A DNA stretch of 64,000 nt, taken from contig NC_090599.1 in NCBI RefSeq assembly GCF_000497125.1, positions 682,001 through 746,000 on the forward strand. The letters run 5' to 3'. Below, in pieces: positions 7,625 to 36,016 of this stretch (positions are counted from its first letter, which is position 1; the number at the start of each line of letters is the position of its first letter). The position numbers were made by a program, and so were the translations under genes. Below the pieces are notes generated by a model. It saw only the letters and a list, made by a program, of their open reading frames with translations. It had not been told where the DNA came from and searched no databases. Origin of the DNA: Spironucleus salmonicida. Lineage: Eukaryota.

Positions 7625-7720
7625 ACTTATAGGAACCCTGCGCGCGGCGTGCGTGGCGGGCCGGGCCGGGGCGCTGGGGCCGAGGGAGCGCGTCGGGACC
7701 GGGGAGTGCGGGCGCCGCAT
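7625..7720 (-). pseudogene. Orphan 5' fragment (32 codons) of gene 1264..2100
   Basis: Identical start, then unrelated AT-rich sequence past the arm border. Confidence 0.6.
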
Positions 7721-7808
7721 TTTGGAGGGGCGAGGATGGGCCGCGATGTCAGGGGCCGGTGCGTGCCGCGGTCCATGCCCAGCCCGTGGAGTACCGCAAG
7801 AGAAATAA

Positions 7809-7973
7809 TCATTCGGAGGCGAGCGACGAGGCCTCGTCCAGGTTGGCGTCCAGGATGTCCTGCAGGTTGCTCTGGCTGCCGCGCGCGGAGATCTCGGTGA
7901 CCGAGGGGTTGTCGCCGTCGAACATCCGCTGGTACTCGGAGTAGCTGGGCTGGATCACCTTCCGCTCGTCCAT
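7809..7973 (-). CDS. Acidic microprotein, 54 aa (IR1 copy B)
   Basis: Mirror of 1011..1175. Confidence 0.65.
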   Translation of the reverse strand: MDERKVIQPSYSEYQRMFDGDNPSVTEISARGSQSNLQDILDANLDEASSLASE

Positions 7974-8048
7974 TCTTCGGGGAGGGCGGATATGTGCCCG
8001 AAGCGAATTCGGTACGGTGAACCACAAGTTGCGGGAGAGGAAAGGAGG

Positions 8049-8516
8049 TCACTCGGCGTCCAGCACCTCCGCTCCCACCTGCTGGAGGAGGAGCCGGCCG
8101 GCCACCGCGATCCCCCCGAGCTGCCGGGCGGCGGCGCGCAGGAGGGCCAGGAGGCGCTCGTTGAGCACCACGACGCGCAGGTCGGGCACGGTGCGGAACT
8201 CCGCCTGCACGAGCGAGAGGCAGAGGCTCAGCGTGAGCAGGTAGGCCGGGAGGCGGCAGCGGCGGTGCGCGCGGGCCAGGCGCTCGAGGCCCCAGAGCAC
8301 CGCCAGCAGCAGGGCGTGCACCACGGCGGCGAGGTTGGCCGCGTAGCCGAGCAGCACGGTGGGCCTGTAGGCGCCGTGCGCGCGGAGCAGGGCCACCCAG
8401 GCGTCCACGGGGGCGGGGCAGCCGGGCATGAGCCGCACCACGGAGCAGATCACGGTCATCTGGGCCGCGAGGGCGAGCGGGGCCGCGGCGAACACCAGCA
8501 GCGACGCGAACTTCAT
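8049..8516 (-). CDS. Hypothetical membrane protein, 155 aa (IR1 copy B; one L->R change)
   Basis: Mirror of 468..935. Confidence 0.7.
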   Translation of the reverse strand: MKFASLLVFAAAPLALAAQMTVICSVVRLMPGCPAPVDAWVALLRAHGAYRPTVLLGYAANLAAVVHALLLAVLWGLERLARAHRRCRLPAYLLTLSLCLSLVQAEFRTVPDLRVVVLNERLLALLRAAARQLGGIAVAGRLLLQQVGAEVLDAE

Positions 8517-8535
8517 TGTAGGGTGGAAGGGAGCG

Positions 8536-10527
8536 TCAGGAGAAGCGGCGGTAGCGCAGCATGAGGTAGGACGCGCAGGCGAAGAGCGCGATCACGCCGG
8601 CGGTGTAGCCGACGTTGGTGAGCGTGGCGCTGAGCAGCGTCCAGCCCTGCTGCCCGTAGAGCTCGAACATGGTGGCCCCCGAGTCGAGCGGGCAGCTCTG
8701 GCCGGGGTCGCACACCACGTCCTGGCCGTGGAGGATGAGGTACAGGTAGGCGCGGAACATGTAGGCGAACTGGCTGACCCAGGGCATCCAGCTCCAGTAG
8801 GAGGGCACGGAGCTGGGGTTGATGTAGGGCCCGGCGAAGGTGAAGAGGATGCTGACGGTGGTCATGAACACGGCGATCGCGGCGACGAAGGAGTTGAAGA
8901 CGAACTGGAAGAAGAGCGCGAGGAAGAGCGTGCTGTACAGCATGAGCAGGAACTGCACGCCCAGCAGCAGGCACAGCTGGAGCGAGCTGTTCATGTTCAC
9001 CATGAAGTACGCGATCACGATCGTGTAGAACACCATGAACACGTACACCGGCAGGTCCACCAGCAGCTCCGCCAGGAAGAACCCCGCCGTGCCGTACAGC
9101 CCCTGCGCGTGCTCCGCCAGGTACACCTGCCGCTTCTGGAACCAGCGCTGCGCAGCGTCCGCCGAGGGCGGGAACACCAGCGTGATCTGGATGAAGAACA
9201 CCGCCCCGATGCGGTTCCCCACCGCCGTGTAGGTGTAGCCCAGCCGCCACCACAGCGAGCCCGCGAAGAGCGCCACCACCGTGTACTGCAGCAGGAAGCG
9301 GAAGAACAGCACCGGGTTGCGCACCTGCTGCCGCACCGCCCGCGAGAGCAGCACGCCGAACTGCGCCTGGTAGCTCTGCACGTACTTCGCCTCGTAGTGC
9401 AGCACCTCGTACGCCGAGATCAGCGCGTGCGGCAGCAGCCCGAACTTGCGGTCCGCCCGGTACGCGCCGTACTGCTGGCCCGCCGACAGCGTGTAGCCCA
9501 GCACCGCGCGCCCGTCCACGCCGTCCGGGTCCACCGTCTCGGCGGTCTCCAGCACAGCCAGCCGGACTGGCACTGGCGCGGCCTGCCGGAACTCCGCCGC
9601 GAGCCGCTCCACCACGGCCTCCTGAGAGGGGTCCGCGAGCAGCTCGATGAGGAAGTCGGCGGGGTTCACGTTCTCGGGCAGGCTCACGCCGGCACTGCGC
9701 GCGCGCTCCAGGAAGCCCGCGGCGGGGATGCTGAAGAGCAGCTGGCCGCGGCGCATGACCAGCACGCGGTCGAAGAGCCCCCACATCTGGCTGGTGGGCT
9801 GGTGGATCGTGGTCAGCACCGTGAGCCCGTGGCGCTGCGAGTCGGGGCTCGTGAACTGGTCGTAGGGGCGCCCGCTGAGCCCCTTCAGCGTCGCGATGAG
9901 CTGGTTCGCGGTGTGCACGTCCAGCCCGCTCGTGCACTCGTCCAGCACCAGCACCTCCGCCCCGGACACGATCTGGCGCGCGATGCTGGTCCGCCGCCGC
10001 TCGCCCCCCGAGATCCCGCTCTTGTTCGCCCCCGCCGAGAAGCCCTGGCCCGCCGGCGCCCCGATGAGGGAGTCGCGGACGTGGGCCAGGCCGAGCGAGG
10101 CCAGCGTGCGGTCGGTGAGCTCCTCGTGGTGGCGGCCGGGCAGCTTCAGGTCCGCCACGAACTTCACCGCCTCGAAGACGGTCTCCTCCGCGCCCAGGAT
10201 GTCCTCCTGCTGCACGTAGCCCAGGCGGCGCTTGATCCAGGGCCCCACGCGCTTGCCGTTGAAGCGCACCTCGCCCGAGAAGGTCTTCGTGTAGAGCCGG
10301 TTGCACACGATGTTGATCAGCGAGGTCTTCCCGCAGCCCGAGGACCCGATGATAGCCACGAACTCCCCCGGCTGCACGTCCAGCGAGATGTCCCGCAGGA
10401 TCGGCTTGAAGGGCTCCTCCGCCTGGCAGAACTCCTGGCGCCGGTAGCGGTACCGGGAGGCGGCGTGCAGCTTCTAGCGCAGGCCCTCAGGCACCGAGTA
10501 GGACAGGTGGTCCACGCTGATAGACAT
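8536..10527 (-). CDS. ABCG (White-type) half transporter, 663 aa
   Basis: Walker A GSSGCGKTS, signature ISGGERRR, Walker B VLVLDE, TIHQP, NPADF, C-terminal TMD. ATG at 10527 reached through one TAG=Gln. Confidence 0.95.
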
Positions 10528-11670
10528 TTTGTGGAGTCGCAGCGGCCACGTTCGCAGGGGAGCCGAGCACGGCGCGGGCTGGAGGGCAGAGAGGCCTTGG
10601 AATGGGGTCTGCTGGGATGGGTAAAGGGAGTATGTGTGGGCAGGGTATGCCGGGGCGCGGGGCTCGCTCCATTTAGGAGGTCGGCTTCGAATGGATTATG
10701 ATATCTTTTCGTGATAAAAACAGCTAATTTATAATATTCAAAAATCTAATTAATATAATTAGAGTAAGTAGGATACATAAATTTACGTATAGTTCATTCT
10801 TGATTAAGAAGCTACTAATTAAAATCTTATTCTAATAAAACAAAACGCAATGAATTTATACCATATTACAATTATATGATAAAGTATAAAATTATTTTAA
10901 AGAGTATTATAACATAAAATAGATAACTATCACCATAAAAGAATAAACTGATAAATAATAATTATTTGTATAAAATTTGATAAAATATAATACCATGATT
11001 AATTTAATACTTAATGATGATATGTCATATATTTCGTCAATATAATGATTCAAATGTACTATATGATAAATAAATATTACAAATCATTCAAATAGTAAGC
11101 TCTTACTAACGCTTTTCTTAATTAGTCCAGCTTTTCTATTTTTTCTATCATCTTTATAAGAATTAATAATTTCATATAGTTCTTATATTTTTTCTTATTA
11201 TACTTCAAACACCTATGATTTTACTAATGACTGATCTAATTAGCCTATTTTAATGTTATCTAGTGATTATGACTGTTTAATATTCTTGGTCATTCTCTAA
11301 ATTAATGTAAATGAATCAGTGTTGTATTTATGTATATGTATAATATTTAGTGTTTTTAATTCTTAATTTCTTTTTTACATTTTTGTAAAGTGATTAATGT
11401 ATACTATTTGTTATATATAAGAATCGCGAATATAAATCGATACCATTAAAAAATATAACATTAAGACTGAAATTGAACTATGATGTTTGTAAATATTATT
11501 TAATTACATTACAAATACTATGAACTTATAAAAATAAAAGTAGAATATAATAAATCATCACTAATTTCAAATTTTAACAATGAAGTACGGGAATCTTATC
11601 ATTACTATCAATAAGGACATAAAATATATATTAGATAGAAACAAATTTACTTTGATCTAGGGATCAGGTG

Positions 11671-11754
11671 CTGAGCATCGAGAGCCTGCAGCAGCGGAAC
11701 CAGGAGCGCTGGGAGATGCTGCGGCAGCTGGACGAGCGGTTCGGGCTGGAGTGA
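11671..11754 (+). pseudogene. Orphan 3' fragment (LSIESLQQRNQERWEMLRQLDERFGLE*) of gene 22390..23445
   Basis: Arm begins mid-CDS; upstream sequence is unrelated and AT-rich. Confidence 0.7.
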
Positions 11755-11962
11755 TTGCGTGGTGCGTTTGCCGTAGGGCAGTATGTCATAGAAGGGTGGC
11801 TGGTGGAACAGAACAAGTCACTCAGGCCGCGTCCTACAGGGCCTGCGCGGCGGGATAGCGTGGCACCGCGGGGGTCAGATCCTGCAGGATGATCACGGGG
11901 CGGTACTGGGGCTTGCGGGCGCGGCGGCAGCAGGCGAGCATTCGGTGCGAGGGTCTACGCGG

Positions 11963-12196
11963 TCACTCCGCCAGGTCCTCCTCCTGGTACGAGGCGCGCG
12001 AGGGGCACCCCACGAGGCTGCCGGGCCGTGCGAAGCTGATCGCGCTCTCCTGGGCGCCGGTGCAGGCCGTGAAGACCTGCGTGGGGACCAGGTTCTCGAT
12101 GAGCGACATCAGGTCGTCGTCGATGGCGAGGTCTGGCGGGCTCGGGATGCTCTAGATGCTCTTCTGGTGCAGCGCGTGCAGCCGGCGCTTGCGCAT
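11963..12196 (-). CDS. Microprotein, 77 aa, 'MRxRRLHAL' family paralog 2 (IR2 copy A)
   Basis: Mirror of 21948..22181. Confidence 0.75.
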
Positions 12197-12327
12197 TTTC
12201 GGAGGGCAGTTGTATTTAAATAGGAGGAATTAAAAGCCTTTTGCGTATTTGTGTTTTAGCACAATATCCGAGCGTGGAGCAGAATGGGCGCGGCGGTATG
12301 ATGGGCAGGAGAGCGCTGCCGAGCCGC

Positions 12328-12552
12328 TCAGAGGGTCAGGTCCTCGTCGATGCAGGAGGTCTGGCTGACGCAGCCCATCATACACGGCTACTGCTCCAGG
12401 CTGATCATGCTGTCCTTATTGTGGGAGCTGGACGAGAATATGTGCTCGGGTTGCATATCGATGACCGTCGCAAAGAAGTCCTCCAGAGGGGCTGGCGGCA
12501 GGATCTGGGTAATCTTCTTCTGCTGGAGGGCGTGCAGGCGGCGCTGTCGCAT
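12328..12552 (-). CDS. Microprotein, 74 aa, 'MRxRRLHAL' family paralog 1 (IR2 copy A)
   Basis: Mirror of 21592..21816. Confidence 0.75.
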
Positions 12553-13031
12553 TTTGGGGAGGGACGCGCAAATGCGTCTGGGATATAGTATTGAGTAGTT
12601 TTGGTCCGCCCTGCGTATACAAATAAATTATTTACGAATACATGTTTCGATGCATAAAGCTTGGCGTGCACTGGGATGGGAAACTGTAGCTACCAGTTTG
12701 CATCGGCCCAAACCGAACCCCATGCTGCAGTGGTCACGATGCAGCATACACACCGGGCGTTGCGCGCCCACGCCAGGCAGCGTTCGCTGGAAATGGAGAT
12801 TTAAGCACACGCCTCTTTGGGCAAATATTTGTAATCAGCATCTGTACAAAAACGTAAACAATAATTTTCTACAGATACGAGGATAACCGGATATATAGGA
12901 TAGTACCTTCTTCGGGAGTGAACATCTACAGTGCGCAGTTATCAGTTTCACCCTAATAGTAACGGCGGTCCCGCGCTGGTTTTGCAATTATCCTATCCTA
13001 TACTCTATTCTAACGTCCCTACGCTCGTAAA

Positions 13032-13205
13032 ATGAAGCGGTGCTGTGCCAACTGGGCCAGCAGCGATGTTGACGAGTTCTTCTACTGCCACCAGATGCAG
13101 GGTGCTACCGACAAGAGTGCATCCGGAGAATCTGGCTAACTCCAGCACAGACACCGGAGCGAGGGACGCGTGCTAGGACTAGCGGTGACCGAAGAAGGCG
13201 CCTGA
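13032..13205 (+). CDS. Possible 57-aa microprotein (MKRCCANW...); mirror at 20939..21112
   Basis: AAAATG start, open with TAA=Gln; no recognisable motif. Confidence 0.35.
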
Positions 13206-13307
13206 GCAGCTCTGGCGATAGCTGCAGCTTCGACGCGCCGCTGACCAGCCGACTCTCGTATACAAGTATACAAGGTATTTCTATACATAATACTACCGAG
13301 GCGAAGA

Positions 13308-13643
13308 ATGGAGGTTCCGGTCACCGTCGACCTCCCCCAGAGCACGCGGTATGTCAGCCTACCGGTAGGGAAGACACTGCTGGAGGCTCTTCGAGCTAGC
13401 GGAATCAAGGTGCAGAACGGCTGCGGCGGCATCCAAGCGTGCTGCACATGCTAGGTGGCCTTCGACGCTGAGTCCTTCGTGAGACTTCCGAAGATGACAG
13501 ATGCCGAGGAGGATATGCTCACCTTCTCCCCTGACTAGAACCCCCTAGCTAGGCTGTCGTGCGCGGTGGTCGTAGACGAGGCTATCCGTGGCGCACGGAT
13601 AGTGGTGAAGGAGCAGAATCTGGCCCCGGGCCATAGCAAGTGA
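13308..13643 (+). CDS. Adrenodoxin-type [2Fe-2S] ferredoxin, 111 aa (IR2 copy A)
   Basis: GKTLLEA, CGGIQACCTC, EEDML, RLSC. Contains two TAG=Gln, so the track misses it. Stop in AGTGA. Confidence 0.93.
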
Positions 13644-13848
13644 TATCAGTTTAGTCATCAGCCTCCAGCCAAACCACCCGAGGCAAGCGCATTCTAGAAA
13701 CGATCTGGGCTCGGTAGAGTTTGGTTTAGTGCAGTACCCAGATTGATGCTTATTTGTTAAATATTAAGAAAATTATACAATTGCAACCTTGCACAAACCT
13801 GAATATAATCCACATTAGGGTAGGATATATTCGTGTCCTCACTCCAAA

Positions 13849-14925
13849 ATGACCGATTCCTTGTTCACTCACATTATGTTTTTCCTGCTAACCGCATCCT
13901 CTACTGGCTACCTGTTCGGCTTTACCCTACTAGAGAAAAACCTGGGCATGTCAAAGTTCACATTCACCACCGCGGCGGTTGGATTCGCGACGTCTGGGCT
14001 TGTTTTCCATCTCGGCCTCCTCGATAAGATGGTACGTAAACTTTCTCTCCGGCCGGTGCTATGGATTGCGATGGCCATCCAACAGGCGGGCCTCACGCTC
14101 TGCCAGTTTCCAGCGGTGCACCCCCTAAACTACATTGCGGCGCTGCTGACTTCGTGCGGTTGCTGCATGCTATATTCGGCATTATTCTACCTGTACGGTA
14201 ACTTTATGTACTTTGGTGTAGTGTCCTCTATCGCTTTCGCGGCCTCTACCACGTTCTTCTACTTTTCAGCGCTCAGCCAGTATTACCTTATCGGATTGCA
14301 GCTGCTAAGTGTCACGTCGCTGGCCCTATTCTTTCCAAAGTACCCTAGCTCCTACTGGCAGCAGGAGAAGCGCAAGCTTCTGCATAAGTCCCAGGTGCTG
14401 ACGCTCGCTGTATTCGGTAGTATCTTCAGCAAGAACCTGATGACCGTGTCCTACTTCTCTTTCGACAAGAGCCAGCTGGTATTCTCACTAGGTCTTGCCT
14501 CTTCGGTATTATCTGGACTATTCCTGTTCAACCTTCGCGTCGGTATGGTCATCTTTGCCAGCATGGCGGTGGTATCCTGCATCCTGAACGTGTTCAACAA
14601 CGTCATCCTGATACAGTTAGGTTTCTACCTCGCCAATATCGCAGCGGGGGGATTCATCTCGGGGGCTATGGCCCTCAACTCGTAGGAGAACGTGATGCGT
14701 GACAACGGGTTGATCTACCTCGCCCTGATTTGTGGAAACATTAGTGGGTTCCTCGAGAAGATAGACAGAATATGGTATTAGGCCTGTTATGAAGTATGCA
14801 TGGTCCTCATCGTGGTTGGCATGGCCGGAGTTTTCATGGTGGATACGGTGGAGAAAGCGTCCGTTGAGGAGGGAACCAGGGAGTCAGGGCAGGAGGACCT
14901 CAATCTGGGGGTCGCACAGGAGTGA
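13849..14925 (+). CDS. MFS-like multi-pass membrane protein, 358 aa (IR2 copy A)
   Basis: About 11-12 hydrophobic segments, MFS-like loop LDKMVRKLSLRP. Extends past TAG 14683 to AGTGA. Confidence 0.8.
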
Positions 14926-14961
14926 TTGAATATAATAGATACTAAATCGGTCTGGACCATA

Positions 14962-15186
14962 ATGAGGAGCGACCAGGCCAGCCACCGATACGTGCAATCC
15001 AAGGCATTCCGCCACCAAAAGGAACGGTCCCGCCTGCACAACTCTCCAAACTCCTCATTCGAAGCGCGCCATGGCGAGTGTACGGCCCCACCTGCTGACC
15101 GTCTGCAGGACCCCTGTTATCAGGAGGCTGCGTTCGCCAACGGGTTCGTGCTCCCGCGGCTGCTCCACTAGTGCAGCACCAAGTGA
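14962..15186 (+). CDS. Possible 74-aa hypothetical; mirror at 18958..19182
   Basis: ATG 36 bp after the MFS stop, ends AAGTGA. Confidence 0.4.
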
Positions 15187-15292
15187 GAATTCAGTACCAG
15201 CGGTAGAGGCGCTTCCTCACCCACCTCAAAGCGTTCTGGTACCCACTCTTGCATGCGGAGTGGGCAAACATCAACAAAGTGACATATTGCGT

Positions 15293-15475
15293 TCACTCCT
15301 CGCTCCAGTCGTCCACGCCCTCTACCAGGTCCTCCTCGGCGAACAGAATTGCACCCTCCGACGCCTCGACCTCGAAGGAGTGCTGATCGATCTGCTGTGT
15401 ACCAAAACACGATACCTGAAACTCGGCGAGCCCCTCGTCACTCGTACTGGGGCCTCCCATGTTCGATGAGTTCAT
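15293..15475 (-). CDS. Possible acidic 55-60 aa microprotein; mirror at 18669..18851
   Basis: Ends GAGTGA; head-to-head with the 15492 gene. Confidence 0.4.
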   Translation of the reverse strand: MNSSNMGGPSTSDEGLAEFQVSCFGTQQIDQHSFEVEASEGAILFAEEDLVEGVDDWSEE

Positions 15476-15491
15476 TCAAGTTCCACTCCAA

Positions 15492-16085
15492 ATGCTCATC
15501 ACGCTCTCGGCCGCCGCAATCGCGTGCTACTCGCGGCGCAGCTTCGACTTCTGCGAGTCCATAACTGTTATGCCACCAAAAACTACACCGGTGTTGCTGG
15601 ACCTACAGAGCATGCCAACTCCGGATGACCTGGCTGCTGTCCTCAGCTCTCACGTTGTGATAGGTCTGGTACTCAACGCCTCTCATGCGTAGTTGGTGAA
15701 GGTTCTTGGTGACCGGTACAAAGTTGTGGCATCGCTGACCTCTACTCCTTCCTCGAGCACCCTCCGAATACCAACCCCAAAACCCACCGCACTGTACCTA
15801 GGTTTTTCCTGCACACCCAATGCCGAATCCTAAGTTCCATACGATTCGATGCCAGCGCCGGCCCTAGTGCATTCCAGGGCCATGCTAATTGGATTCGATG
15901 CATCTCCAAAGACTATCAATAAGCTTTACGCCTACTTCGCGCGTGATTCTCTTAAGGAACCGTCAAAGGATGAGATAATGGAGCAGGTGAAGGGCACTGA
16001 CGAGTTTAAGCGCATCATTGAAGAAGCGATGTCCCAGCGCGTTCTCGAGGAGGTCCAGAAAAAGCTCGACAAGGGAGAGTTGTGA
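15492..16085 (+). CDS. Hypothetical protein, ~197 aa, hydrophobic N-terminus (IR2 copy A)
   Basis: Track ORFs 15459..15692 and 15849..16085 join under table 6; CCACTCCAA-ATG context. Confidence 0.7.
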
Positions 16086-17059
16086 TTGGATTTAAGGGAT
16101 ATAGATTATACACTAACAGTAAATTAGTTAGGGTAGATAGTAAAGTAATTATTAATTATAAATATTAATAACAAAGTTGATAAGACGATTTAATTTTACA
16201 ATGAATCGTAAAATTATTTGATCTAGCAAAAATCAACAATATATCAATTTTATTTTCTAAATTAAACATAAAATTTGGTGTATATACATGTAGCTTTCAT
16301 TCTGAGAAGTTTTTATGAAATTTAAAATCTTAATAAAACAAGTAAAATAAATATAAAACCATTATAAAATCTGAAATTGGTTTATAAGTTATTCGTATCA
16401 GCATAGCTTTGAAAGTTTAATAATGTGTGTAACAGTTGATATACTAGGATAAATAATTCTAATCTTAATATTTAACTAACCAGAATATAATATTACTAGC
16501 TTGAGCATTATCTATGATGATATAAAATATATCATACATACAATTAAGGTTGATATTATACTTAGAGATTGATATATTTTTATTGTATATGATGGTAATG
16601 TTAAGGTTTCTTACAATATTAATTGAAAATCCAATTGGTACAAGGTAAAATGTTAAGTTTCAAAGCCTTCATTTATCTCAATATACTTTATATATACACA
16701 TTAAACATAAATGAATATATACAATAGCAGAGCTTTTATTTAACATTCATTTTGTAAATACACATATTTTGCGATTATAATGAATAAAATAAAATTTAAT
16801 CAGTCTAAATTTTGGACTGAGTTATTGTTAAATAAGCTATTATTAAATAATAGGGTAAATTTCAAGTGAATACAATCATTAAACCAGAATTAGAAGTAAA
16901 TTTATACGATAAATTTTGAATTCTATAAATACTTGAATACATGTAAAATGATACAAAATATTATTATATAATATATAGCAATTTATAGTATTATTGTTAT
17001 AATTCGTAAATATAATACTGAATATAATTATATATAAATATTACGTTCTCAGTTTTAAA

Positions 17060-17218
17060 ATGAACTGTAAATAGATTTCATATGATGAATACTTGAAAAT
17101 GTATGAAGAAGATAATAAACCTTCAGTTTTAACTCCTATAGGTGGATAATCATATCATTGTTCATAATTTAATGAGTTCATTGAAGATCTTGATTCTTTT
17201 TAAGTAGACTATGAGTGA
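17060..17218 (+). CDS. Acidic microprotein, 52 aa, AT-rich member of the 'SYxEYxxM-DNPSV' family
   Basis: MNCKQISYDEYLKMYEEDNKPSVLTPIG...; ends GAGTGA; resembles the 1011..1175 product. Confidence 0.65.
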
Positions 17219-18058
17219 TTTAATTTTATTACTAAATATCGTATAGCAAAGATTATAAATATATAGGATATTGTAGCATAACTTAATGTTAAGAATAGCT
17301 AATCCTACATTAATTCCTCACCTAAATCATAAGTCTATTTTTGGAACTTATTAGAAAAATAAATTATTTTGTTTTTAATATACCTAATAATTTCACAAAT
17401 ACCATTTAATGCTATATTAATTAATAAATATAAGACAATATGGATAAATTTCTTTTGCTAATATTAGATTTAAGTAAATACTATTTAAAATATTTAAAAA
17501 GTATTATTCCATAGATAATTTTGTTATGTAATATATATATTATATAGTTAAATAACCAATATTAATTTCAAATTTGTTTTTAACTTCTATTTGACACTAC
17601 AGAAAATGATAAGACTAAATCATAAAATCAAATACTAAAAGATATAAGAATAAACTAAGAAGAATATCAAAAGCGATCAAATACTACATTATACAAGATA
17701 TTGAGACATTTTACTAAAAGTAATAATATTATAATTTGATCTTTAAAGCGCTAAGTGATCTACATAAATAACTATTATTTTTTGTATATGTTATTAAATG
17801 AGTCTCTTAATGGTTATTTATTTTCTTATAATTATAATTATTAAAAATAAACTAAATAATAATTAAACTGTATTTTATCTAATACTATCATTGCAATAGT
17901 ATGATGTCCAGAAAGTTTGATAATACTTTGCAGTTGTCCTCTATTTCCATCGTTAAATTGAACCAGCTTTCATAATTCTGCCAATTTATATTAAATTGTT
18001 TTCATACTCAAAATACAACATTATATAATTTTTTATTTAATATAATTGAGCCATTCAA

Positions 18059-18652
18059 TCACAACTCTCCCTTGTCGAGCTTTTTCTGGACCTCCTCGAG
18101 AACGCGCTGGGACATCGCTTCTTCAATGATGCGCTTAAACTCGTCAGTGCCCTTCACCTGCTCCATTATCTCATCCTTTGACGGTTCCTTAAGAGAATCA
18201 CGCGCGAAGTAGGCGTAAAGCTTATTGATAGTCTTTGGAGATGCATCGAATCCAATTAGCATGGCCCTGGAATGCACTAGGGCCGGCGCTGGCATCGAAT
18301 CGTATGGAACTTAGGATTCGGCATTGGGTGTGCAGGAAAAACCTAGGTACAGTGCGGTGGGTTTTGGGGTTGGTATTCGGAGGGTGCTCGAGGAAGGAGT
18401 AGAGGTCAGCGATGCCACAACTTTGTACCGGTCACCAAGAACCTTCACCAACTACGCATGAGAGGCGTTGAGTACCAGACCTATCACAACGTGAGAGCTG
18501 AGGACAGCAGCCAGGTCATCCGGAGTTGGCATGCTCTGTAGGTCCAGCAACACCGGTGTAGTTTTTGGTGGCATAACAGTTATGGACTCGCAGAAGTCGA
18601 AGCTGCGCCGCGAGTAGCACGCGATTGCGGCGGCCGAGAGCGTGATGAGCAT
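18059..18652 (-). CDS. Hypothetical protein, ~197 aa (IR2 copy B)
   Basis: Mirror of 15492..16085. Confidence 0.7.
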
Positions 18653-19218
18653 TTGGAGTGGAACTTGAATGAACTCATCGAACATGGGAGGCCCCAGTAC
18701 GAGTGACGAGGGGCTCGCCGAGTTTCAGGTATCGTGTTTTGGTACACAGCAGATCGATCAGCACTCCTTCGAGGTCGAGGCGTCGGAGGGTGCAATTCTG
18801 TTCGCCGAGGAGGACCTGGTAGAGGGCGTGGACGACTGGAGCGAGGAGTGAACGCAATATGTCACTTTGTTGATGTTTGCCCACTCCGCATGCAAGAGTG
18901 GGTACCAGAACGCTTTGAGGTGGGTGAGGAAGCGCCTCTACCGCTGGTACTGAATTCTCACTTGGTGCTGCACTAGTGGAGCAGCCGCGGGAGCACGAAC
19001 CCGTTGGCGAACGCAGCCTCCTGATAACAGGGGTCCTGCAGACGGTCAGCAGGTGGGGCCGTACACTCGCCATGGCGCGCTTCGAATGAGGAGTTTGGAG
19101 AGTTGTGCAGGCGGGACCGTTCCTTTTGGTGGCGGAATGCCTTGGATTGCACGTATCGGTGGCTGGCCTGGTCGCTCCTCATTATGGTCCAGACCGATTT
19201 AGTATCTATTATATTCAA

Positions 19219-20295: not shown

Positions 20296-20500
20296 TTTGG
20301 AGTGAGGACACGAATATATCCTACCCTAATGTGGATTATATTCAGGTTTGTGCAAGGTTGCAATTGTATAATTTTCTTAATATTTAACAAATAAGCATCA
20401 ATCTGGGTACTGCACTAAACCAAACTCTACCGAGCCCAGATCGTTTCTAGAATGCGCTTGCCTCGGGTGGTTTGGCTGGAGGCTGATGACTAAACTGATA

Positions 20501-22181: not shown

Positions 22182-22202
22182 CCGCGTAGACCCTCGCACC
22201 GA

Positions 22203-22322: not shown

Positions 22323-22389
22323 GTGACTTGTTCTGTTCCACCAGCCACCCTTCTATGACATACTGCCCTACGGCAAACGCACCACGCAA

Positions 22390-25561: not shown

Positions 25562-25660
25562 CTATTGAAATATACACAGAATAGTTCATTATTTTTTAAA
25601 ATCCCATTTTTAATAATTTATATATTATAATATTATATATTATAATATATTTTCCAAATT

Positions 25661-27898: not shown

Positions 27899-28384
27899 AT
27901 GTTACAATTTAATTTTTATAAATAATAAATTTTTTCACTTTGTATGAAGGCCTACTATTGAAAAAATAACTATATTAAGCTTTTATTTTCTACTATTATA
28001 AGACATTATAACAATATAAAACTAAGAAATCCGCGATCCGGCCGCCGCGCAGGTTCGCTGAAGCGCGCCCCTTCCCATTCCCTCGGGCCCCTGCTCGGGA
28101 GCTGCTGGGCAACCGCCTCTCTGGGGCAGACAGCGCGAGCCACGGTACCTCCCGTCGATGCAGCATGCGGAGCACCGGGTACCGCGCCTCAGTCCCCCAG
28201 GAAGCTGGACTGGCGCCTCGGCCTGTCTCGCCGCGGCTCCGGCCTGGCCTCGGAGGGCGACGGCACGCGGTACGCCTGCTATCGTGTGCGCTGCGTGCCC
28301 AGGATCTGTGATATAGGCGGCTGCGGGGGCACCGGCTGGGACATGCCGCTCTGGCGCGCGCGGGACGGGCGCATTTCGGAAGGG

Positions 28385-29173
28385 TCAGTCGCGGCGGGCG
28401 CGGCGGAGGAGGGCGGCGATGGCGAAGGCGACCAGCAGCCAGAGGCCGGCGCTGATGCCGATGACGACCTGCACGGCGGTGGTGATGCCCGGCAGCACCC
28501 CGGTGGGGGCGCAGTACCAGGCCGTGATGTTGCGGAACATCTGCGGGCGCGTGGCGGTGTCCCCGGTGCCAAAGGCGAGCACCCCGTACTCTAGCGCGCC
28601 CCGGGCGGCCTCGCACCGCAGCCGGAAGGGCGGGGGCGCCGAGGTGGACACCGCGCAGCCCCCGTCGAGGCAGATCGCGGCGGGGCACCACTGGAAGGAG
28701 CGGCCCAAGCCGCAGTCCGCCACGCCCGAGGTGCGGACGGTGCAGTAGTCCAGCGCGCTCTGGGGGTCCAGCGGGCAGTAGGAGCCGCCCTGCACCGAGA
28801 AGAACGCCGCGGGAGCCCCCGCCGGGGTGCCGCCCAGGGCCCGGCAGGCGGCCAGGAAGAGCGCGTGCGGCACGCCGGGGCCCCAGACCTCCAGCGAGCC
28901 CGTTGCGCATAGCACCGGGTCCGGGGAGTAGAAGCCCCCGCACGTGTACGGGGCGGGGAGGCGCTGGCAGTTGCGGCACCAGGCCCGCGCGGTTAGCGTC
29001 TGGGCGGGGGAGGTCAGCTCGAGCATGGAGGCGACCAGGACGCCAGCGCGCCGCCGGCAGCTGTCCAGCAGGTCCTAGGCGCCCATGAAGTTGTTGGTGA
29101 GCGGCGTGCCGTCGGGGGCGCAGAGCAGCTGGATGGTGCGGGCGTGGAAGGCGCCGCAGGTGGTGCCGTACAT
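28385..29173 (-). CDS. Cys-rich membrane protein with C-terminal TM, 262 aa (IR3 copy A)
   Basis: Mirror of 34495..35283. Confidence 0.75.
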
Positions 29174-29213
29174 TGTGGAGGGGCGGAGGGGACATGGCCC
29201 AAGCAGGAAAGCC

Positions 29214-29495
29214 TCACTCGACGAGCAGCACGCGCTCCACAAACCGCCCCGGCACCAGCAGCTCCTTGCGCTGCACCAGGTCGTACCCCGCGTGCGCCTC
29301 CGGGCTGGGAAGCGGCCTCTCAGCGTCGTCGCGGGGCACGAACTGCGTCACGTCGCGCAGCATGAAGCTCAGGTCGTACTCCAGGGCCGCGAGAGCCCCG
29401 CGCACGTGGAAGCCGTTGGTTAGCTGCAGCTGCACGACCGCGCCAAGGAAGCGCTCCCCGAACGCCTGCGCATCCGGCGTCTTCAACTCCGGCAT
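29214..29495 (-). CDS. Sm/LSm-fold protein, 93 aa (IR3 copy A)
   Basis: Mirror of 34173..34454. Confidence 0.75.
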   Translation of the reverse strand: MPELKTPDAQAFGERFLGAVVQLQLTNGFHVRGALAALEYDLSFMLRDVTQFVPRDDAERPLPSPEAHAGYDLVQRKELLVPGRFVERVLLVE

Positions 29496-29512
29496 TCAGT
29501 GGAAGGGAAGAA

Positions 29513-29881
29513 TCAGTCCAGCTCGGTGGCGTAGTGCACGCCGAAGTCCGTCCCCGCCATGGGCCCGGCCGCCAGCTGCTGGAGCCTGCGCCGGTTCGCG
29601 TTCCGTAGGCCTGCGTGGGCAGCCTCGCGGTCTGCCATCTCCCCCACCGAGGTCGCCGCGCCCCGCCGGGTCTGCCGGTGCTTCTCCGCCTCCAGCGCCC
29701 GCACCTCGTCCAGCAGCTCGTGCGCGCGCCCCCGCAGACGGCCCAGCAGCAGCTCGTCGGGGCACGCCTGGCGGAGGTAGCGCAGGACTGGGGCCTCTGG
29801 CACGCAGGTGTACTGGGAGGGTGTGTAGGCGGCAGCGGGCTGCTGGCGGGCGGCCTGCTCGTGCTTCCGGATGTACGCCAT
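29513..29881 (-). CDS. Hypothetical protein, 122 aa (IR3 copy A)
   Basis: Mirror of 33787..34155. Confidence 0.65.
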   Translation of the reverse strand: MAYIRKHEQAARQQPAAAYTPSQYTCVPEAPVLRYLRQACPDELLLGRLRGRAHELLDEVRALEAEKHRQTRRGAATSVGEMADREAAHAGLRNANRRRLQQLAAGPMAGTDFGVHYATELD

Positions 29882-30068
29882 TTCTGGGCGGGCCAGTTCG
29901 GGATATATAAGTAGTAATTTCTGGAACAAGGATATAGATATATATGATTTCCCATAATAAAAACAAGTTAACTACACAGTAAGCATTAAAGACTATTAGT
30001 TTAATTATAGTAGGATGAATAACTTATATATATTATCTCTCAATTATTTATCCACTCCATATTCCTAA

Positions 30069-33000
30069 ATGCTATCCTAAATTAAAAATCTAAAAAACGT
30101 CATTATAGCACTAGGAACAGTTAAAATTCACGAATTATATTAACACATATCTCCAGATTGTAGGTAACATTAAAATTTGATTTAGAATTACTTGTTAAAA
30201 ATTCCGCATTTAATTATTAAATAGGACTAGCTAACATTACCAGACTAATACCGCATTAAATATCTATCTTTAAATCTTATATGTTCCAAATACCCTCAGT
30301 TAAGTAAGATTTATTTCATTATTTCTTCATCTCTTTTTCATGGCTTCGACTAATAATAATTGATGCGATTTACTAATCTCGATGCTAAATAAGTATCAAG
30401 ATTTGTTTTGATACTTGTTTAAGCAAATTTAGTCATATAAACTAAAGGAAAAATTTTATTTGCAACTTTTATTCTATAGCAGGAGTATCCTGAATATGTT
30501 TTACAAACCTTTTCTTAAATCAATACTGCAAATACATTATATGATTTGGTAGAATTTAATAAGATATTTTAAAATATAGTTACTAGTGTATCAGTATTAC
30601 TTGATTCATAGTTTAAAAACTAAAATTTAGAGAACACAATATAGCAGGTTTCAAATTTTTAAGCTTGTTGGAAACCTGAGATTTTCATAGAAACCTTAAT
30701 AAAGTATAATTTAATTGAAATAAAAATTGTTGGGAAACGAAAAATTTTTATTAAAAAATAAGCAGATACCAAATAGTTTATCAGCCCTAATTTTTCTATT
30801 TTTACACCTATTTTTGCACCAACGCGTGTAGTAAAACTACATTCTTTGGATATTTTGCAAGCTACGCATGGTTAAGGGCTTGTTTTATTAATAAAATAAT
30901 ATTTCACACATGAATCTACTAAAATGTCTACGCATTTAAAACCAATGTTGGAAGCTAATTACCATATGAAAATAAATGAAAGCGGTCTAATAACGTCTTT
31001 AAAAAGAGAGCAGCATGACAATTCAGAAATCTGTAAAGATGAAGCTATTGATTCAGATACGGTACCAAAAGGGGATCGAGCAGTTGTACTGAAAACAATT
31101 CTAGATAATGTTTAATTTATAGAAATTTTTTAACTTTTTCATATTTTGTAGCTTAAAATTTATGCATAAGGTGATTTTGTTAAAATAGACAATAAATATA
31201 GGATTAGGTTTCTATAGTAATGTTAAAAATAATATAATATTCAGAGTGTAACCATTAATGGTATATAATTTTTATTTTTAAAGGATAATGGAACTACTGA
31301 AGAGTCTATTGCAAATTGTTTAAATAAAGAGAATACATTTGAAAATTAATATTTTCTTAATTCTCAATAAGAACATCAGTTATATTTGTTAGATACTATT
31401 AAAAACCTATCAGAACTAATAATATTTAACAAAATTTTTAGAGACTCATGTTTTTATGTTGATAGCTTACTAGCTTATTTAACACCATAACAACTCATAA
31501 ATATAGATTATAATTTAGGAATTTGTGTATTATAAAATATTTGTGAGTTTACATAGAGATAAATGTTGAATACACCTGTAATTTTGCTTCCAATTGACTT
31601 ATAAGTTCTCATTCTGAAAAATTATTAGGATTACATTAAATTTAAATCATTTATTACAATAGAAATTAAAAAACTGTTATAATTAGGATTTTTAGAGTAA
31701 ATTCCTCTTAAAATTGGAATTAATGATTTTTATATTGCAAGAATTAATAATACTTCCTGTGAGAAAATAGCTATTAGAATTAGATCAGTATTTTAGTTCG
31801 AAGTAACAAAATTTATTGATAAAGAATATTGTAGTATCATTGAAGATTTAACTTTCATAAACAAAACAGAAGCGTAGTATTTTATAGAATATTCTTATTA
31901 AATTCAATCTTTTAAAATTCCTTTTATTTTTGCTAATTATTTTTACTAACTATTAACCATTCTTAATTAATAAGTTACTAAAACATTTCCTTTTCCAAGT
32001 TATATTAATTTAGAACTAGATAAAAATTTAATTATTGATACAGAGTATAATGAAATTATTTAAAATATACATAATATTTTATAAATCTAGAATTTCTGCC
32101 CCTAATAAGAAAAATTAAAGATTAAAAAATATTTACATAATGTTTCAGGTTCTATTATACATATTGAATAGCTTTAAATAGAAAATATAACCTAAAATTA
32201 AATACTAGTTACTATTATTAAACTGAAATAGTAAAACTCTATAAGGGCTAAGAAAGCTATTTATTTTCTAAATTAGAAGAGATTTTTACCATTTGACTTA
32301 GATAATTTAAGCCAATTTCATGTAGTAATTAATTAAGATCTTACTACTAAATCTCATCATAGACAGAAATCATCTGAAGAACTCTCAAAATTGCATTAAA
32401 AACGAGTTATTACACATGTATCGCATATTGATAATAAAGAATATCTTAGGTTTTCGAGCTTACAGCGTATTAATAAAAGTGTTATAAGTGCTCGCCTTCA
32501 TAAAATGCACTTTTAGCATTTTAAACCTCATAAGCTTAACATTTAATATACAGTGAAAAAGCAGCACCAAAATACGATTTCAACTAAGGTTTCACTTCCA
32601 TTTTCCATTAAAAAATCAATTTTTCAATTCGCTGAATCCACACTTTAGCTAAAAAAAGGTTCTTGGGGTGAATATTTGAACTTGCGGGATACAAGCAAAT
32701 CACCAGAAATCTATGAGCTTTATGTACAAATTATAAAAGACTAAACTGTGCCAAAAGACTGCATTTTGCAAGATTTTTTTTACGCCTCGGGACTGCTTAC
32801 AAAGGATTTTAAACTGCCCCGTGCGATCAGATACGCACCGTTCGTGAAAACCTTCAAATTCGATCATTCAGAGGCTTCTGGGGTCCAGCTTAGCATTCTT
32901 CAGGATCTGGCACTGGTCAGAAATGTGTTGATTTTCGATGATAAAACGGTGAAAACGAGCGAAATGCTAGCCCAAAACGACGCAGAATTCGTCGAAATTG

Positions 33001-33650
33001 AGGCCGAAATTGCGAATTCTGGAGCATTTCCGTTCCATTTTGACCTCAAAATTACAGCATTTGACCAGAAGGAAATTGACGATTTAGATACCAGCATAAT
33101 GAGCCTCTAGAACTCTCAACAAATTGCCGTTGCGAGCGTTTATGATGATATTTTGGAGTAGAGCCAATTTTCACTCAGGCGCTCAAGCTACAAAGGCGGG
33201 TATGAGGAGGGGAAAAATGCTGATATTGGAGCGGATTAGTAGGTTAAATGCGAGTTAGAAACTTAGAATTAGGTAGTTTTGTTACTGAATGAATAATAAT
33301 AAGAAAGTTTAATCTAAAAATTTACGTGCAACGAAATTGAGCTTGTGGGCAGCAAAAATGGGTTTTAGGAAGAGCTCCCAGAAGAATTTATTAGGGATAT
33401 TAGTATTTGTATACTCGATTTTATTTATGTAAATCCTGGAAATAATGTTATGAGCATGCTATGCAAATTTTTTATGGTTCTACCAGTCGTCATAATTCGC
33501 GTTATCAATGTTTTGAGCTATGACTTTTTGGTCGAAATTAGGGATTCTAGAGGTTATGTTGCCAGATGCCTTACTGGGAAGGTAGAGGAAGAATCATGGA
33601 CGCTTAGGACTAGTTATGAGAATTATAGGCGTTTTGTCTAGTAGGAGTGA
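30069..33650 (+). CDS. Large hypothetical protein, ~1193 aa, with an N-terminal winged-helix-like motif; fills the IR3 spacer
   Basis: Track ORFs 30924, 32748 and 33450 share one frame; ends GAGTGA. Alternative ATG at 30015. The middle was not checked codon by codon. Confidence 0.8.
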
Positions 33651-33786
33651 TTTAACGGTAAATATTTTATTAATTGGCGTTTTTAGTACTAAGTTTGTTG
33701 TTTATCCTATTGAACTAAGGTAATAAATTATACTTATTTTTTCCAGGAAATTACTACTTATATATCCCGAACTGGCCCGCCCAGAA

Positions 33787-34155
33787 ATGGCGTACATCCG
33801 GAAGCACGAGCAGGCCGCCCGCCAGCAGCCCGCTGCCGCCTACACACCCTCCCAGTACACCTGCGTGCCAGAGGCCCCAGTCCTGCGCTACCTCCGCCAG
33901 GCGTGCCCCGACGAGCTGTTGCTGGGCCGTCTGCGGGGGCGCGCGCACGAGCTGCTGGACGAGGTGCGGGCGCTGGAGGCGGAGAAGCACCGGCAGACCC
34001 GGCGGGGCGCGGCGACCTCGGTGGGGGAGATGGCAGACCGCGAGGCTGCCCACGCAGGCCTACGGAACGCGAACCGGCGCAGGCTCCAGCAGCTGGCGGC
34101 CGGGCCCATGGCGGGGACGGACTTCGGCGTGCACTACGCCACCGAGCTGGACTGA
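33787..34155 (+). CDS. Hypothetical protein, 122 aa (IR3 copy B)
   Basis: GC3 bias; AT-rich element and C-rich tract before ATG. Confidence 0.65.
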   Translation: MAYIRKHEQAARQQPAAAYTPSQYTCVPEAPVLRYLRQACPDELLLGRLRGRAHELLDEVRALEAEKHRQTRRGAATSVGEMADREAAHAGLRNANRRRLQQLAAGPMAGTDFGVHYATELD

Positions 34156-34172
34156 TTCTTCCCTTCCACTGA

Positions 34173-34454
34173 ATGCCGGAGTTGAAGACGCCGGATGCGC
34201 AGGCGTTCGGGGAGCGCTTCCTTGGCGCGGTCGTGCAGCTGCAGCTAACCAACGGCTTCCACGTGCGCGGGGCTCTCGCGGCCCTGGAGTACGACCTGAG
34301 CTTCATGCTGCGCGACGTGACGCAGTTCGTGCCCCGCGACGACGCTGAGAGGCCGCTTCCCAGCCCGGAGGCGCACGCGGGGTACGACCTGGTGCAGCGC
34401 AAGGAGCTGCTGGTGCCGGGGCGGTTTGTGGAGCGCGTGCTGCTCGTCGAGTGA
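34173..34454 (+). CDS. Sm/LSm-fold protein, possibly Naa38/Mak31-like, 93 aa (IR3 copy B)
   Basis: Sm1-like FLGAVVQLQLTNGFHVRGALAALEYDLSFMLRDV; Sm2-like LLVPGRFVERV; stop in AGTGA. Confidence 0.75.
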   Translation: MPELKTPDAQAFGERFLGAVVQLQLTNGFHVRGALAALEYDLSFMLRDVTQFVPRDDAERPLPSPEAHAGYDLVQRKELLVPGRFVERVLLVE

Positions 34455-34494
34455 GGCTTTCCTGCTTGGGCCATGTCCCCTCCGCCCCTCCACA

Positions 34495-35283
34495 ATGTAC
34501 GGCACCACCTGCGGCGCCTTCCACGCCCGCACCATCCAGCTGCTCTGCGCCCCCGACGGCACGCCGCTCACCAACAACTTCATGGGCGCCTAGGACCTGC
34601 TGGACAGCTGCCGGCGGCGCGCTGGCGTCCTGGTCGCCTCCATGCTCGAGCTGACCTCCCCCGCCCAGACGCTAACCGCGCGGGCCTGGTGCCGCAACTG
34701 CCAGCGCCTCCCCGCCCCGTACACGTGCGGGGGCTTCTACTCCCCGGACCCGGTGCTATGCGCAACGGGCTCGCTGGAGGTCTGGGGCCCCGGCGTGCCG
34801 CACGCGCTCTTCCTGGCCGCCTGCCGGGCCCTGGGCGGCACCCCGGCGGGGGCTCCCGCGGCGTTCTTCTCGGTGCAGGGCGGCGCCTACTGCCCGCTGG
34901 ACCCCCAGAGCGCGCTGGACTACTGCACCGTCCGCACCTCGGGCGTGGCGGACTGCGGCTTGGGCCGCTCCTTCCAGTGGTGCCCCGCCGCGATCTGCCT
35001 CGACGGGGGCTGCGCGGTGTCCACCTCGGCGCCCCCGCCCTTCCGGCTGCGGTGCGAGGCCGCCCGGGGCGCGCTAGAGTACGGGGTGCTCGCCTTTGGC
35101 ACCGGGGACACCGCCACGCGCCCGCAGATGTTCCGCAACATCACGGCCTGGTACTGCGCCCCCACCGGGGTGCTGCCGGGCATCACCACCGCCGTGCAGG
35201 TCGTCATCGGCATCAGCGCCGGCCTCTGGCTGCTGGTCGCCTTCGCCATCGCCGCCCTCCTCCGCCGCGCCCGCCGCGACTGA
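34495..35283 (+). CDS. Cys-rich membrane protein, 262 aa (IR3 copy B)
   Basis: Many Cys, C-terminal TM VVIGISAGLWLLVAFAIAALL and basic tail RRARRD; one TAG=Gln. Confidence 0.75.
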
Positions 35284-35293
35284 CCCTTCCGAA

Positions 35294-35479
35294 ATGCGCC
35301 CGTCCCGCGCGCGCCAGAGCGGCATGTCCCAGCCGGTGCCCCCGCAGCCGCCTATATCACAGATCCTGGGCACGCAGCGCACACGATAGCAGGCGTACCG
35401 CGTGCCGTCGCCCTCCGAGGCCAGGCCGGAGCCGCGGCGAGACAGGCCGAGGCGCCAGTCCAGCTTCCTGGGGGACTGA
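35294..35479 (+). CDS. Possible 61-aa Arg/Pro-rich microprotein; mirror at 28189..28374
   Basis: CCCTTCCGAAATG context, like neighbouring genes. Confidence 0.4.
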
Positions 35480-36016
35480 GGCGCGGTACCCGGTGCTCCG
35501 CATGCTGCATCGACGGGAGGTACCGTGGCTCGCGCTGTCTGCCACAGAGAGGCGGTTGCCCAGCAGCTCCCGAGCAGGGGCCCGAAGGAATAGGAAGGGG
35601 CGCGCTTCAGCGAACCTGCGCGGCGGCCGGATCGCGGATTTCTTAGTTATTAGGATGACTTTTTGTTTTTCTTGTACTTGATTACTCCAGCCTGATTAGA
35701 AGTATTTGCTAGATTTTGTATATACTTTTATTAGACTAGATGAAGTAAGTAAGGTTATTATATTCAAACTTATAATATATTACATTAACAACCTACATTT
35801 TACAAATAGACCTACTTAATGTTATAATTTATATTTTATTTTAAGGTTATGCGATTGGTATTAGTGAATGTTGAATATAATGTGAATACAAATATGAGGT
35901 TAATTATAATATGAATAATACAACAAAGAATTATTAGGATATACGTAAAATTAATTTTAAAAAATATTATATATTATGGTATTTTAGCTGAAGGTATATT
36001 CTTTCTTTTATTTAAA

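Follow-up and report, generated by a model that had tools for sequence, protein, structure and literature searches.

Why does the base composition of this locus flip between very AT-rich and GC-rich within tens of bases, and what sets the places where it does so? Spironucleus salmonicida is a fish parasite, a binucleate protist with an AT-rich genome. The window (the whole 64,000-nucleotide stretch analysed, positions 682,001 to 746,000 of contig NC_090599.1) is read in genetic code 6 and contains four near-identical inverted pairs (I1, I2, I3, and I4), whose arms, each with a near-identical paralogous twin, share 99.5 to 99.98% identity between copies. Nine of the 10 window proteins looked up match public proteins exactly, and a tRNA scan returned 0 genes. 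Its features are as follows.

1..1362, inner part of the I4 left arm; GC 0.69; the arm extends 1.7 kb beyond the window's left edge
1363..7621, I4 spacer; GC 0.40
3228-5459, minus strand, choline-transporter-like gene in the I4 spacer; GC3 0.22 climbing to about 0.7
5695-7062, minus strand, 455-aa gene in the I4 spacer; GC3 0.64
7622..10680, I4 right arm, 3.06 kb; GC 0.69; 2 mismatches versus its mirror
8049-8516, minus strand, 155-aa gene in the I4 right arm; GC3 0.99
8536-10527, minus strand, ABCG transporter gene in the I4 right arm; GC3 0.99
11671..16091, I1 left arm, 4421 bp; GC 0.55; 1 mismatch
16092..18052, I1 spacer; GC 0.20; without gene model
18053..22473, I1 right arm; GC 0.545
22390..23445, minus strand, 351-aa gene over the I1 outer end
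28020..29921, I3 left arm; GC 0.72
29922..33746, I3 spacer; GC 0.28
30363-33650, plus strand, 1095-aa gene in the I3 spacer; GC3 0.25, TAA-rich
33747..35648, I3 right arm; GC 0.72; 5 internal mismatches versus the left arm
52576..53391, plus strand, PAP2-family gene; inverted paralog ∼18 kb off
53757..55831, I2 left arm; GC 0.60
55832..59388, I2 spacer; GC 0.27
59389..61463, I2 right arm; GC 0.60

The I1 left arm holds small genes, among them a 358-aa membrane protein and a 111-aa ORF labelled ferredoxin-like by eye, for which a Pfam search gave no match; of the gene at 22390-23445, its outer end includes just the final 28 codons. Three genes of 262, 93, and 122 aa (GC3 0.92 to 0.97) occupy the I3 left arm, where predicted non-coding DNA amounts to 365 bp (GC 0.71). 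The I2 left arm encodes a biotin ligase and ribosomal protein L18a, with a GC3 of 0.96 and 0.91, respectively, and 1.16 kb of it is present as a third copy immediately right of the window, while the I2 spacer carries a 373-aa gene and a PP2C gene (GC3 0.19 each).

The original prediction placed ten composition switches at or near arm borders, and none of the ten is more than 23 bp from an arm end, a distance that covers ∼1.2% of the window. GC in the 200 bp to the left and right is 0.23/0.72 at 7625, 0.65/0.20 at 10690, 0.22/0.64 at 11671, 0.48/0.20 at 16088, 0.24/0.48 at 18056, 0.24/0.70 at 28020, 0.72/0.24 at 29900, 0.32/0.72 at 33770, 0.68/0.23 at 35648, and 0.19/0.46 at 59389. The switch at ∼10690 represents a true arm end (10680), because its mirror sits left of the window. 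Within a search range of ±400 bp, the best GC change-point falls at most 20 bp from the arm end at 14 of the 15 ends in the window, and composition changes sharply at all four ends of I3. The exception is 22473, where GC remains high (0.64/0.70) into a single-copy gene; GC3 of this gene (22390-23445) is 1.0 in the arm and then 0.97, 0.8, 0.7, and 0.23 at the 5′ end, and its mirror flank has a GC of 0.22 and lacks residual homology. GC-rich patches also occur beyond any current arm, e.g., at 4500-7000, 22474-23400, 41000-45500, and 47800-48600.

Intergenic arm DNA had been described as affected too, and predicted non-coding arm segments, some of which may contain unpredicted genes, indeed have a GC of 0.40 to 0.71, bar one 32-bp piece (0.28). 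Glutamine in arm genes is encoded mostly by CAG, as predicted (CAG 184, CAA 8, TAG 17, and TAA 0 in 26 models, with twins entered twice), versus CAG 203, CAA 141, TAG 117, and TAA 250 in the 23 non-arm models. The description of spacer genes as full of TAA fits the spacers of I3 and I2 (45 of 95, 18 of 31, and 20 of 31 Gln codons) but fails for the I4 spacer, whose genes use TAA for 5 of 35 and 9 of 46 Gln codons and in which CAG prevails. This I4 spacer DNA, GC-rich without a near-identical partner, is a candidate for former arm DNA.

The same association was found in a sample of 864 kb, or 5.9% of the genome, in which partners beyond the sample are missed and only window positions 1-53756 were searched genome-wide. 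Twins at an identity of at least 98% exist for approximately 24% of this sample, and arms measure 1 to 8 kb. GC climbs with the identity of the best partner, from 0.309 (none) through 0.36 (80 to 90%) and 0.425 (95 to 98%) to 0.513 (at least 98%), and the circular-shift null for twinned DNA is 0.381 ± 0.013, with a maximum of 0.452 in 2000 shifts. Orientation is irrelevant (direct twins 0.50, tandem arrays 0.57, inverted twins 0.52), and inversion is not needed for the high GC of twins. At clean arm ends the inside is GC-richer than the outside in 90 of 95 cases (155 ends examined), as it is at 37 of 39 ends predicted to be non-coding on both sides (0.50 versus 0.26). Gene edges were considered as a confound and rejected: single-copy gene ends have a median step of 0.09, and 15.5% of 309 reach 0.2, versus 57 of 95 arm ends. 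GC is below 0.42 in 17 of 81 arms, and the C1 block has a median step of merely 0.07.

Genes and their surroundings are both shifted. Of 501 gene models made in this analysis, 280 were retained (score of at least 25, at least 100 codons, non-tandem); median GC3 is 0.88 in 69 arm genes (41 non-redundant) versus 0.25 in 155 single-copy genes, and 53 of the former exceed 0.75 versus 1 of the latter. Intergenic arm DNA is not at background composition, with a GC of 0.53 (n = 52) versus 0.26 (n = 99) in single-copy DNA for 3′ flanks and 0.46 (n = 35) versus 0.19 (n = 66) for short intergenic gaps. Of 24 gene models straddling arm ends, some of which may extend into non-coding DNA, 22 have a greater GC3 in the portion within the arm than in the portion beyond it. 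The codon shift is seen in 22 of 22 codon boxes, four-fold GC is 0.84 in arms versus 0.21 in single-copy genes, and the GARP amino-acid share is 0.24 versus 0.155, a comparison of different gene sets. The GC rise at silent and non-coding sites is restricted to the duplicated tract. Collectively, GC is bound to current near-identity on a kilobase scale and with ∼20-bp edges, whether the DNA is coding or not and whichever way the copies are oriented.

Selection on codon usage, whereby the genes with high expression would be the duplicated ones as well as the GC3-rich ones, is a highly improbable cause. The arm location of L18a, the excess of four-fold over non-coding GC in arms, and the low Nc′ of high-GC3 genes per Andersson et al. 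would fit it; however, non-coding DNA is shifted too and GC3 varies within single genes, whereas translational selection is expected to act on synonymous sites only and uniformly along a gene. S. salmonicida genes with high expression are moreover reported to centre at a GC3s of about 0.4 and to prefer U-ending codons, in the available part of the 2007 survey (PMC1805757). That the islands are an assembly artefact or foreign, laterally acquired DNA is scarcely credible: the short-read runs may share a sample with the assembly, but the I1 arms merge into a single 4418-bp short-read contig at ∼2× the depth of the flanks, contigs overlap four of four junctions, arm genes such as L18a and ABCG are of native eukaryotic type and use code 6, and GC steps occur within intact genes.

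We consider it probable that the arms arose by local segmental duplication and that recurrent ectopic gene conversion, resolving mismatches toward G or C, keeps them near-identical, a homology-driven copy correction with a GC bias. Breaks or lesions would be mended from the twin nearby, a plausible route given that parasitic diplomonads reportedly lack end-joining, and heteroduplex would be repaired in the direction of G/C; two MutS genes and one UDG gene are present. Since conversion requires homology, it would halt at the arm end and thereby create the GC step. Where one copy loses a segment, the surviving copy would drift back toward AT, which would yield one-sided GC tails (e.g., 22474-23445) and orphan GC patches.

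Near-identity could instead reflect youth, through recent duplication of DNA that was GC-rich for other reasons. The one-sided tails at certain ends (22473 and 1362), the existence of single-copy GC-rich genes (GC3 of at least 0.35 in 55 of 155), and the absence of diverged shoulders agree with this (no residual homology above z 4 past the arm ends in 77 end pairs, including 19 redundant tandem rows). It is nevertheless quite improbable: where unique DNA borders both copies, even the richer flank falls by at least 0.15 at 20 of 35 end pairs, versus 4.7% of random interior cuts; just one of 155 single-copy genes has a GC3 above 0.75; and the origin of the islands themselves is left unexplained. 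Mosaic collinear pairs, with stretches of at least 97% identity beside stretches of 62 to 76%, also oppose it. In 19 mosaic alignments of old duplicates, 12 of them from one gene family, the homogenised patch has the higher GC in each copy 14 times. The PAP2 gene at 52576..53391, whose pair counts among the mosaics, is an old duplicate, partly homogenised: codons 1-120 of the pair have 53 to 77% identity and a GC3 of 0.30 to 0.47, and codons 121-240 have 93 to 99% and 0.57 to 0.77. The idea of an old duplication continuously homogenised thus stands in part. GC follows near-identity, covers non-coding DNA, and switches within genes, and old duplicates elsewhere are patchily homogenised, but the four window pairs have no diverged shoulders.

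The direction of change was approached in several ways. Between arms and unhomogenised paralogs, G/C is in the arm at 1141 differences and in the paralog at 585 (unpolarised). In paralog triplets the arm shows no excess of its own (10 up and 5 down; paralog, 10 and 6), judged from the single MATE family that qualified, with 251 sites. Amino-acid polarity is flat for ABCG (100 up and 78 down, P = 0.12; 33 and 35 with distant relatives) and for L18a (20 and 20), and close relatives of the PP2C control were not found. An indirect indication comes from 14 genes whose GC3s exceeds 75%: each ortholog in S. barkhanus is reported to lie below that value (PMC2874811, available part). Copy singletons comprise 29 GC>AT and 29 AT>GC changes overall, whereas AT-biased mutation with biased removal predicts about 75 to 86% GC>AT. 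They split into 12 versus 3 in the tightest copies and 17 versus 26 in looser ones (Fisher P = 0.015), at a post-hoc threshold whose effect is gone at 0.992 (12:10, P = 0.79); the rank correlation gives P = 0.26, and the sites are clustered. Long tandem arrays (582- to 660-bp units) hold just 3 variant sites, too few to inform.

These counts bear on homology-triggered GC-biased mutagenesis, in which twins are homogenised and the GC gain stems from the mutation spectrum in duplicated DNA, through repair synthesis that is error-prone or shielding of C/G from damage, and not through biased allele choice. The even singletons favour it, as do the absence of GC3 below 0.35 among the 69 arm genes, suggesting a quick rise, and the presence of one Y-family polymerase gene. 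The GC level itself is hard to attain with a 70% bias, which yields only 0.38 in a two-copy model. We regard this account as unlikely, given that singletons in the tightest copies tilt toward GC>AT (12:3 and 7:0), that no clear neighbour-base signature of an error-prone polymerase was found in arms, and that every codon box is shifted; four-fold GC across all four 3′ neighbours is 0.71 to 0.86 in arms versus 0.16 to 0.24 in single-copy genes. Against biased conversion, four-fold sites (0.84) stand well above non-coding arm DNA (about 0.5), both being about 0.2 in single-copy DNA, and the model requires 95% GC wins for the former and 76 to 78% for the latter. Under biased conversion, the bias would have to exceed that of primates by far, or else be boosted by more copies or population-level exchange. 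A homology-sensing repair route that rewrites local duplicates to G/C near-deterministically (∼95% GC wins, or GC-biased mutagenic repair) is possible, if doubtful; it would be a compositional mirror image of fungal repeat-induced point mutation.

In the available parts of the primate reports, X palindromes undergo GC-biased arm-to-arm gene conversion, with a directly measured bias of 70%, arms at 46% versus 41% GC, and an equilibrium of 61% versus 40% (PMC8981503), and Y palindrome P6 likewise shows GC-biased arm-to-arm conversion (PMC3723533). As in Spironucleus, their inverted arms are >99% identical around a unique spacer and GC-richer than the flanks, also with genes masked, and intermediate GC of former arm DNA has been proposed there too. 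The shift in Spironucleus is far larger (four-fold GC 0.84 versus 0.21), with ∼20-bp edges, and its bias is inferred here but directly measured in primates. Raised GC is also cited by PMC8981503 for rDNA arrays, multicopy histone genes, and human segmental duplications, which likewise combine concerted evolution with high GC in any orientation; in Spironucleus, by contrast, ordinary housekeeping and orphan genes are hit and amino-acid composition is shifted. For S. salmonicida, a 2007 survey described abrupt shifts from 30% to 70% GC in GC3 and non-coding DNA, their cause unexplained (PMC1805757), and a 2022 paper reported 44.7% versus 30.7% GC for duplicated regions, 19.2% of the genome, and invoked gene conversion solely for surface-antigen expansion (PMC9509377). 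In the available text, neither places the steps at the ends of duplicates or mentions GC-biased conversion, and our literature search found no paper tying S. salmonicida GC islands or duplicate GC to biased conversion.

The 2022 genome-wide average thus becomes a base-resolution pattern, and a concrete, testable cause is offered for GC islands unexplained since 2007. The findings caution against reading GC3 and the choice of Gln codon in this genome as signs of expression or lateral transfer; these mirror duplication state, as amino-acid composition probably does too. With an effect many-fold above that of primate palindromes, in a lineage reportedly lacking end-joining, this is a strong system in which to separate fixation from mutation bias. 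If homology-sensing rewriting were true, GC content would record, at base resolution, where DNA is or once was duplicated.

The genome around the window comprises 14.5 Mb in 42 contigs; the window occupies G000:C4:682001-746000 and is read with genetic code 6 (TAA/TAG = Gln). It contains four inverted pairs (I1 to I4), each consisting of two arms, that is, DNA with a near-identical (≥98%) twin, around a spacer.

11671-16091/18053-22473, inverted pair I1, 1 mismatch between arms
28020-29921/33747-35648, inverted pair I3
53757-55831/59389-61463, inverted pair I2
7622-10680, right arm of I4, placed from flanking DNA; its mirror extends from 1.7 kb beyond the window's left edge to 1362

All ten composition switches of the original prediction lie no more than 23 bp from an arm end; the one near 10690 is a true arm end, because flanking DNA reveals the extent of the I4 right arm and of its mirror. 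The best GC change-point falls within 20 bp of the arm end at 14 of the 15 arm ends in the window. The end at 22473 is without a GC step: a 351-aa gene runs out of the arm here, its GC3 passing from 1.0 to 0.23 across ~1 kb, and the mirror flank has a GC content of 0.22 immediately. Arm genes encode glutamine by CAG at 184 of 209 codons and never by TAA, versus TAA at 250 of 711 in non-arm genes; the description of spacer genes as full of TAA holds for the I3 and I2 spacers and fails for the CAG-rich I4 spacer genes.

Often the 3′ tail alone of a gene sits in an arm end, as at 11671-11754 and 59393-59512, where the gene bodies (22390-23445 and 55705-56826, respectively) lie outside the twin arm. 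The biotin ligase and L18a block of I2 (54496-55659) has a third copy just right of the window (G000:C4:751258-752421, 99.4% identical), and two adjacent small I1-arm genes (77 and 74 aa; 11963-12552, mirror 21592-22181) are old tandem paralogs with 36% protein identity. Short ORFs at 43698-44012, ~52020-52050, and 63518-63862 share the start MG-V/I-x-I/V-S-R/K-LE and are possibly a small diverged family; tblastn among the three found no match to each other.

The GC-rich arms are a real feature. In short-read contigs, the I1 arms merge into a single 4,418-bp contig with a depth of 310 versus 141 to 167 in its neighbors (X1 contigs) and 24.8 versus 9.6 to 12.1 (X3 contigs), and all four I1 junctions are overlapped by contigs. 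The short-read runs may be the source of the assembly itself; these data therefore argue against consensus error more than they add independent support, and an artefact, which fits poorly, has a negligible probability.

We sampled 864 kb in four blocks: 264 kb of contig C4 (window included) and 200 kb each of C1, C3, and C5, with the C3 block positioned to take in MATE paralogs already seen and the C1 and C5 blocks at fixed coordinates. GC content climbs as the best partner becomes locally more identical, from 0.309 in DNA without a partner (572 kb) and 0.31 to 0.32 below 80% identity, through 0.36, 0.38, and 0.425 in successive classes between 80% and 98%, to 0.513 at ≥98% (209 kb; circular-shift null, 0.381 ± 0.013). 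Twins are GC-rich in inverted (0.517) and direct (0.501) orientation and in tandem arrays (0.569). Unique DNA lies outside 95 of 155 arm ends, and GC is higher inside at 90 of these; 40 bp suffice for the mean profile to rise from 0.30 to 0.55. The effect is weak in the C1 block (inside richer at 6/8 ends; median step, 0.07), 17 of 81 arms are below 0.42 GC, and single-copy genes farther from arms tend weakly to have a lower GC3 (rho, −0.19; P = 0.02). The MATE transporter of the window (36017-37516) has four C3 paralogs with 57 to 63% protein identity, all AT-rich (GC ~0.3), a control in which old paralogy without homogenization leaves GC unraised.

Three C5 tandem arrays (G000:C5:510001-517883, 531160-539357, and 539316-552927; units of 660, 582, and 618 bp) are nearly perfectly homogenized at 55 to 58% GC. 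Near-perfect inverted pairs that are AT-rich (0.21 to 0.36 GC overall), mostly without gene models, lie at G000:C5:456111-466173 and 582941-587301 and at C3:627989-629557/668986-670554, and are possibly young duplicates not yet shifted.

The GC shift is probably neither a coding nor an expression effect. Using our own gene predictions (of which 9 of 10 checked agree with public proteins), the 69 arm genes exceed the 155 single-copy genes in GC3 (0.88 versus 0.25), 4-fold GC (0.84 versus 0.21), and GC12 (0.49 versus 0.36), and all 22 codon boxes are shifted (log-odds, 1.2 to 3.2). Predicted noncoding arm DNA is raised as well, as originally proposed for intergenic arm DNA: GC is 0.53 versus 0.26 in the 60 bp after the stop, 0.48 versus 0.20 in the 60 bp before the start, and 0.46 versus 0.19 in short intergenic gaps. 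The step persists at 37 of 39 ends predicted to be noncoding on both sides, and GC3 is higher on the arm side in 22 of 24 gene models straddling arm ends. Selection on codon usage or expression fits these data poorly and is highly improbable; S. salmonicida genes with high expression are reported to have GC3s near 0.4 and U-ending preferred codons, and lateral transfer was excluded for most high-GC3 genes (Andersson et al., PMC1805757).

Recent copying of ready-made GC islands should leave one flank continuing the island. At 20 of 35 end pairs, GC falls by ≥0.15 even on the richer side, versus 4.7% of interior cuts, so that this explanation fits poorly and is very unlikely. An old, homogenized duplication, as in the original prediction, would fit 19 collinear alignments in the sample that mix ≥97% with 62 to 76% identity patches, among them the window PAP2 gene; the homogenized patch is GC-richer in both copies in 14 of these alignments, although a single C1 family contributes 12 of the 19. 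A C1 large-gene family (G000:C1:493000-598000), a mosaic network of direct and inverted copies with 62 to 100% identity, provides the best local setting in which to test for conversion tracts. Diverged shoulders were not found beside the four window pairs, whose age we therefore infer from composition alone. One-sided GC tails and orphan GC patches would fit arms shortened by loss in one copy.

Collectively, the arms probably reflect recurrent repair coupled to GC-favoring mismatch resolution: one copy would be repaired repeatedly off its nearby twin, and the resulting mismatches would be resolved toward GC. Metamonads are reported to be without nonhomologous end joining, and parasitic diplomonads without alternative end joining as well, leaving homologous recombination (PMC8516963). 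The genome encodes two MutS proteins, one UDG, and one Y-family polymerase, the presence of which is uninformative on bias.

The main rival, GC-biased mutagenesis inside homogenized DNA, is unlikely. Singletons in three- and four-copy groups comprise 29 GC>AT and 29 AT>GC changes, a GC>AT share below that expected from AT-biased mutation, as this rival would have it. Against it, the tightest copies (≥99.4%) lean 12:3 toward GC>AT versus 17:26 in looser copies (P = 0.015), the pattern expected of fixation bias, although the threshold is post hoc and the contrast vanishes at 99.2%. The polarized tests were weak: paralog triplets were uninformative on AT>GC direction, and amino acid changes were not significantly GC-ward. 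Fourteen S. salmonicida genes are reported to exceed 75% GC3s, as do none of their S. barkhanus orthologs (Roxstrom-Lindquist et al., PMC2874811), consistent with gain in the former or loss in the latter.

For S. salmonicida, GC islands (PMC1805757) and a raised GC content in duplicated regions (PMC9509377) are already published. A link between duplication, GC, and biased conversion was not found in the available parts of the genome paper from 2014 (PMC3916229) or of those on H. inflata (PMC11787283) and G. muris (PMC7641422), nor was a diplomonad paper on biased conversion among the matches listed from literature outside subscription journals. In primate palindromes, GC-biased conversion between the arms is an established process (PMC8981503; PMC3723533). 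A two-copy model, which scales the GC odds at equilibrium by b/(1−b), recovers the primate bias of 70% from published equilibria (60.9% versus 39.9%); here it demands 76 to 78% in noncoding DNA and 95.5% at 4-fold sites. Constraint on regulatory DNA that is AT-rich, transcription-linked conversion, and added codon selection are candidate causes of the gap between site classes. The arms behave like products of GC-biased ectopic conversion and are putative members of that class; the strength of their GC shift is unusual.
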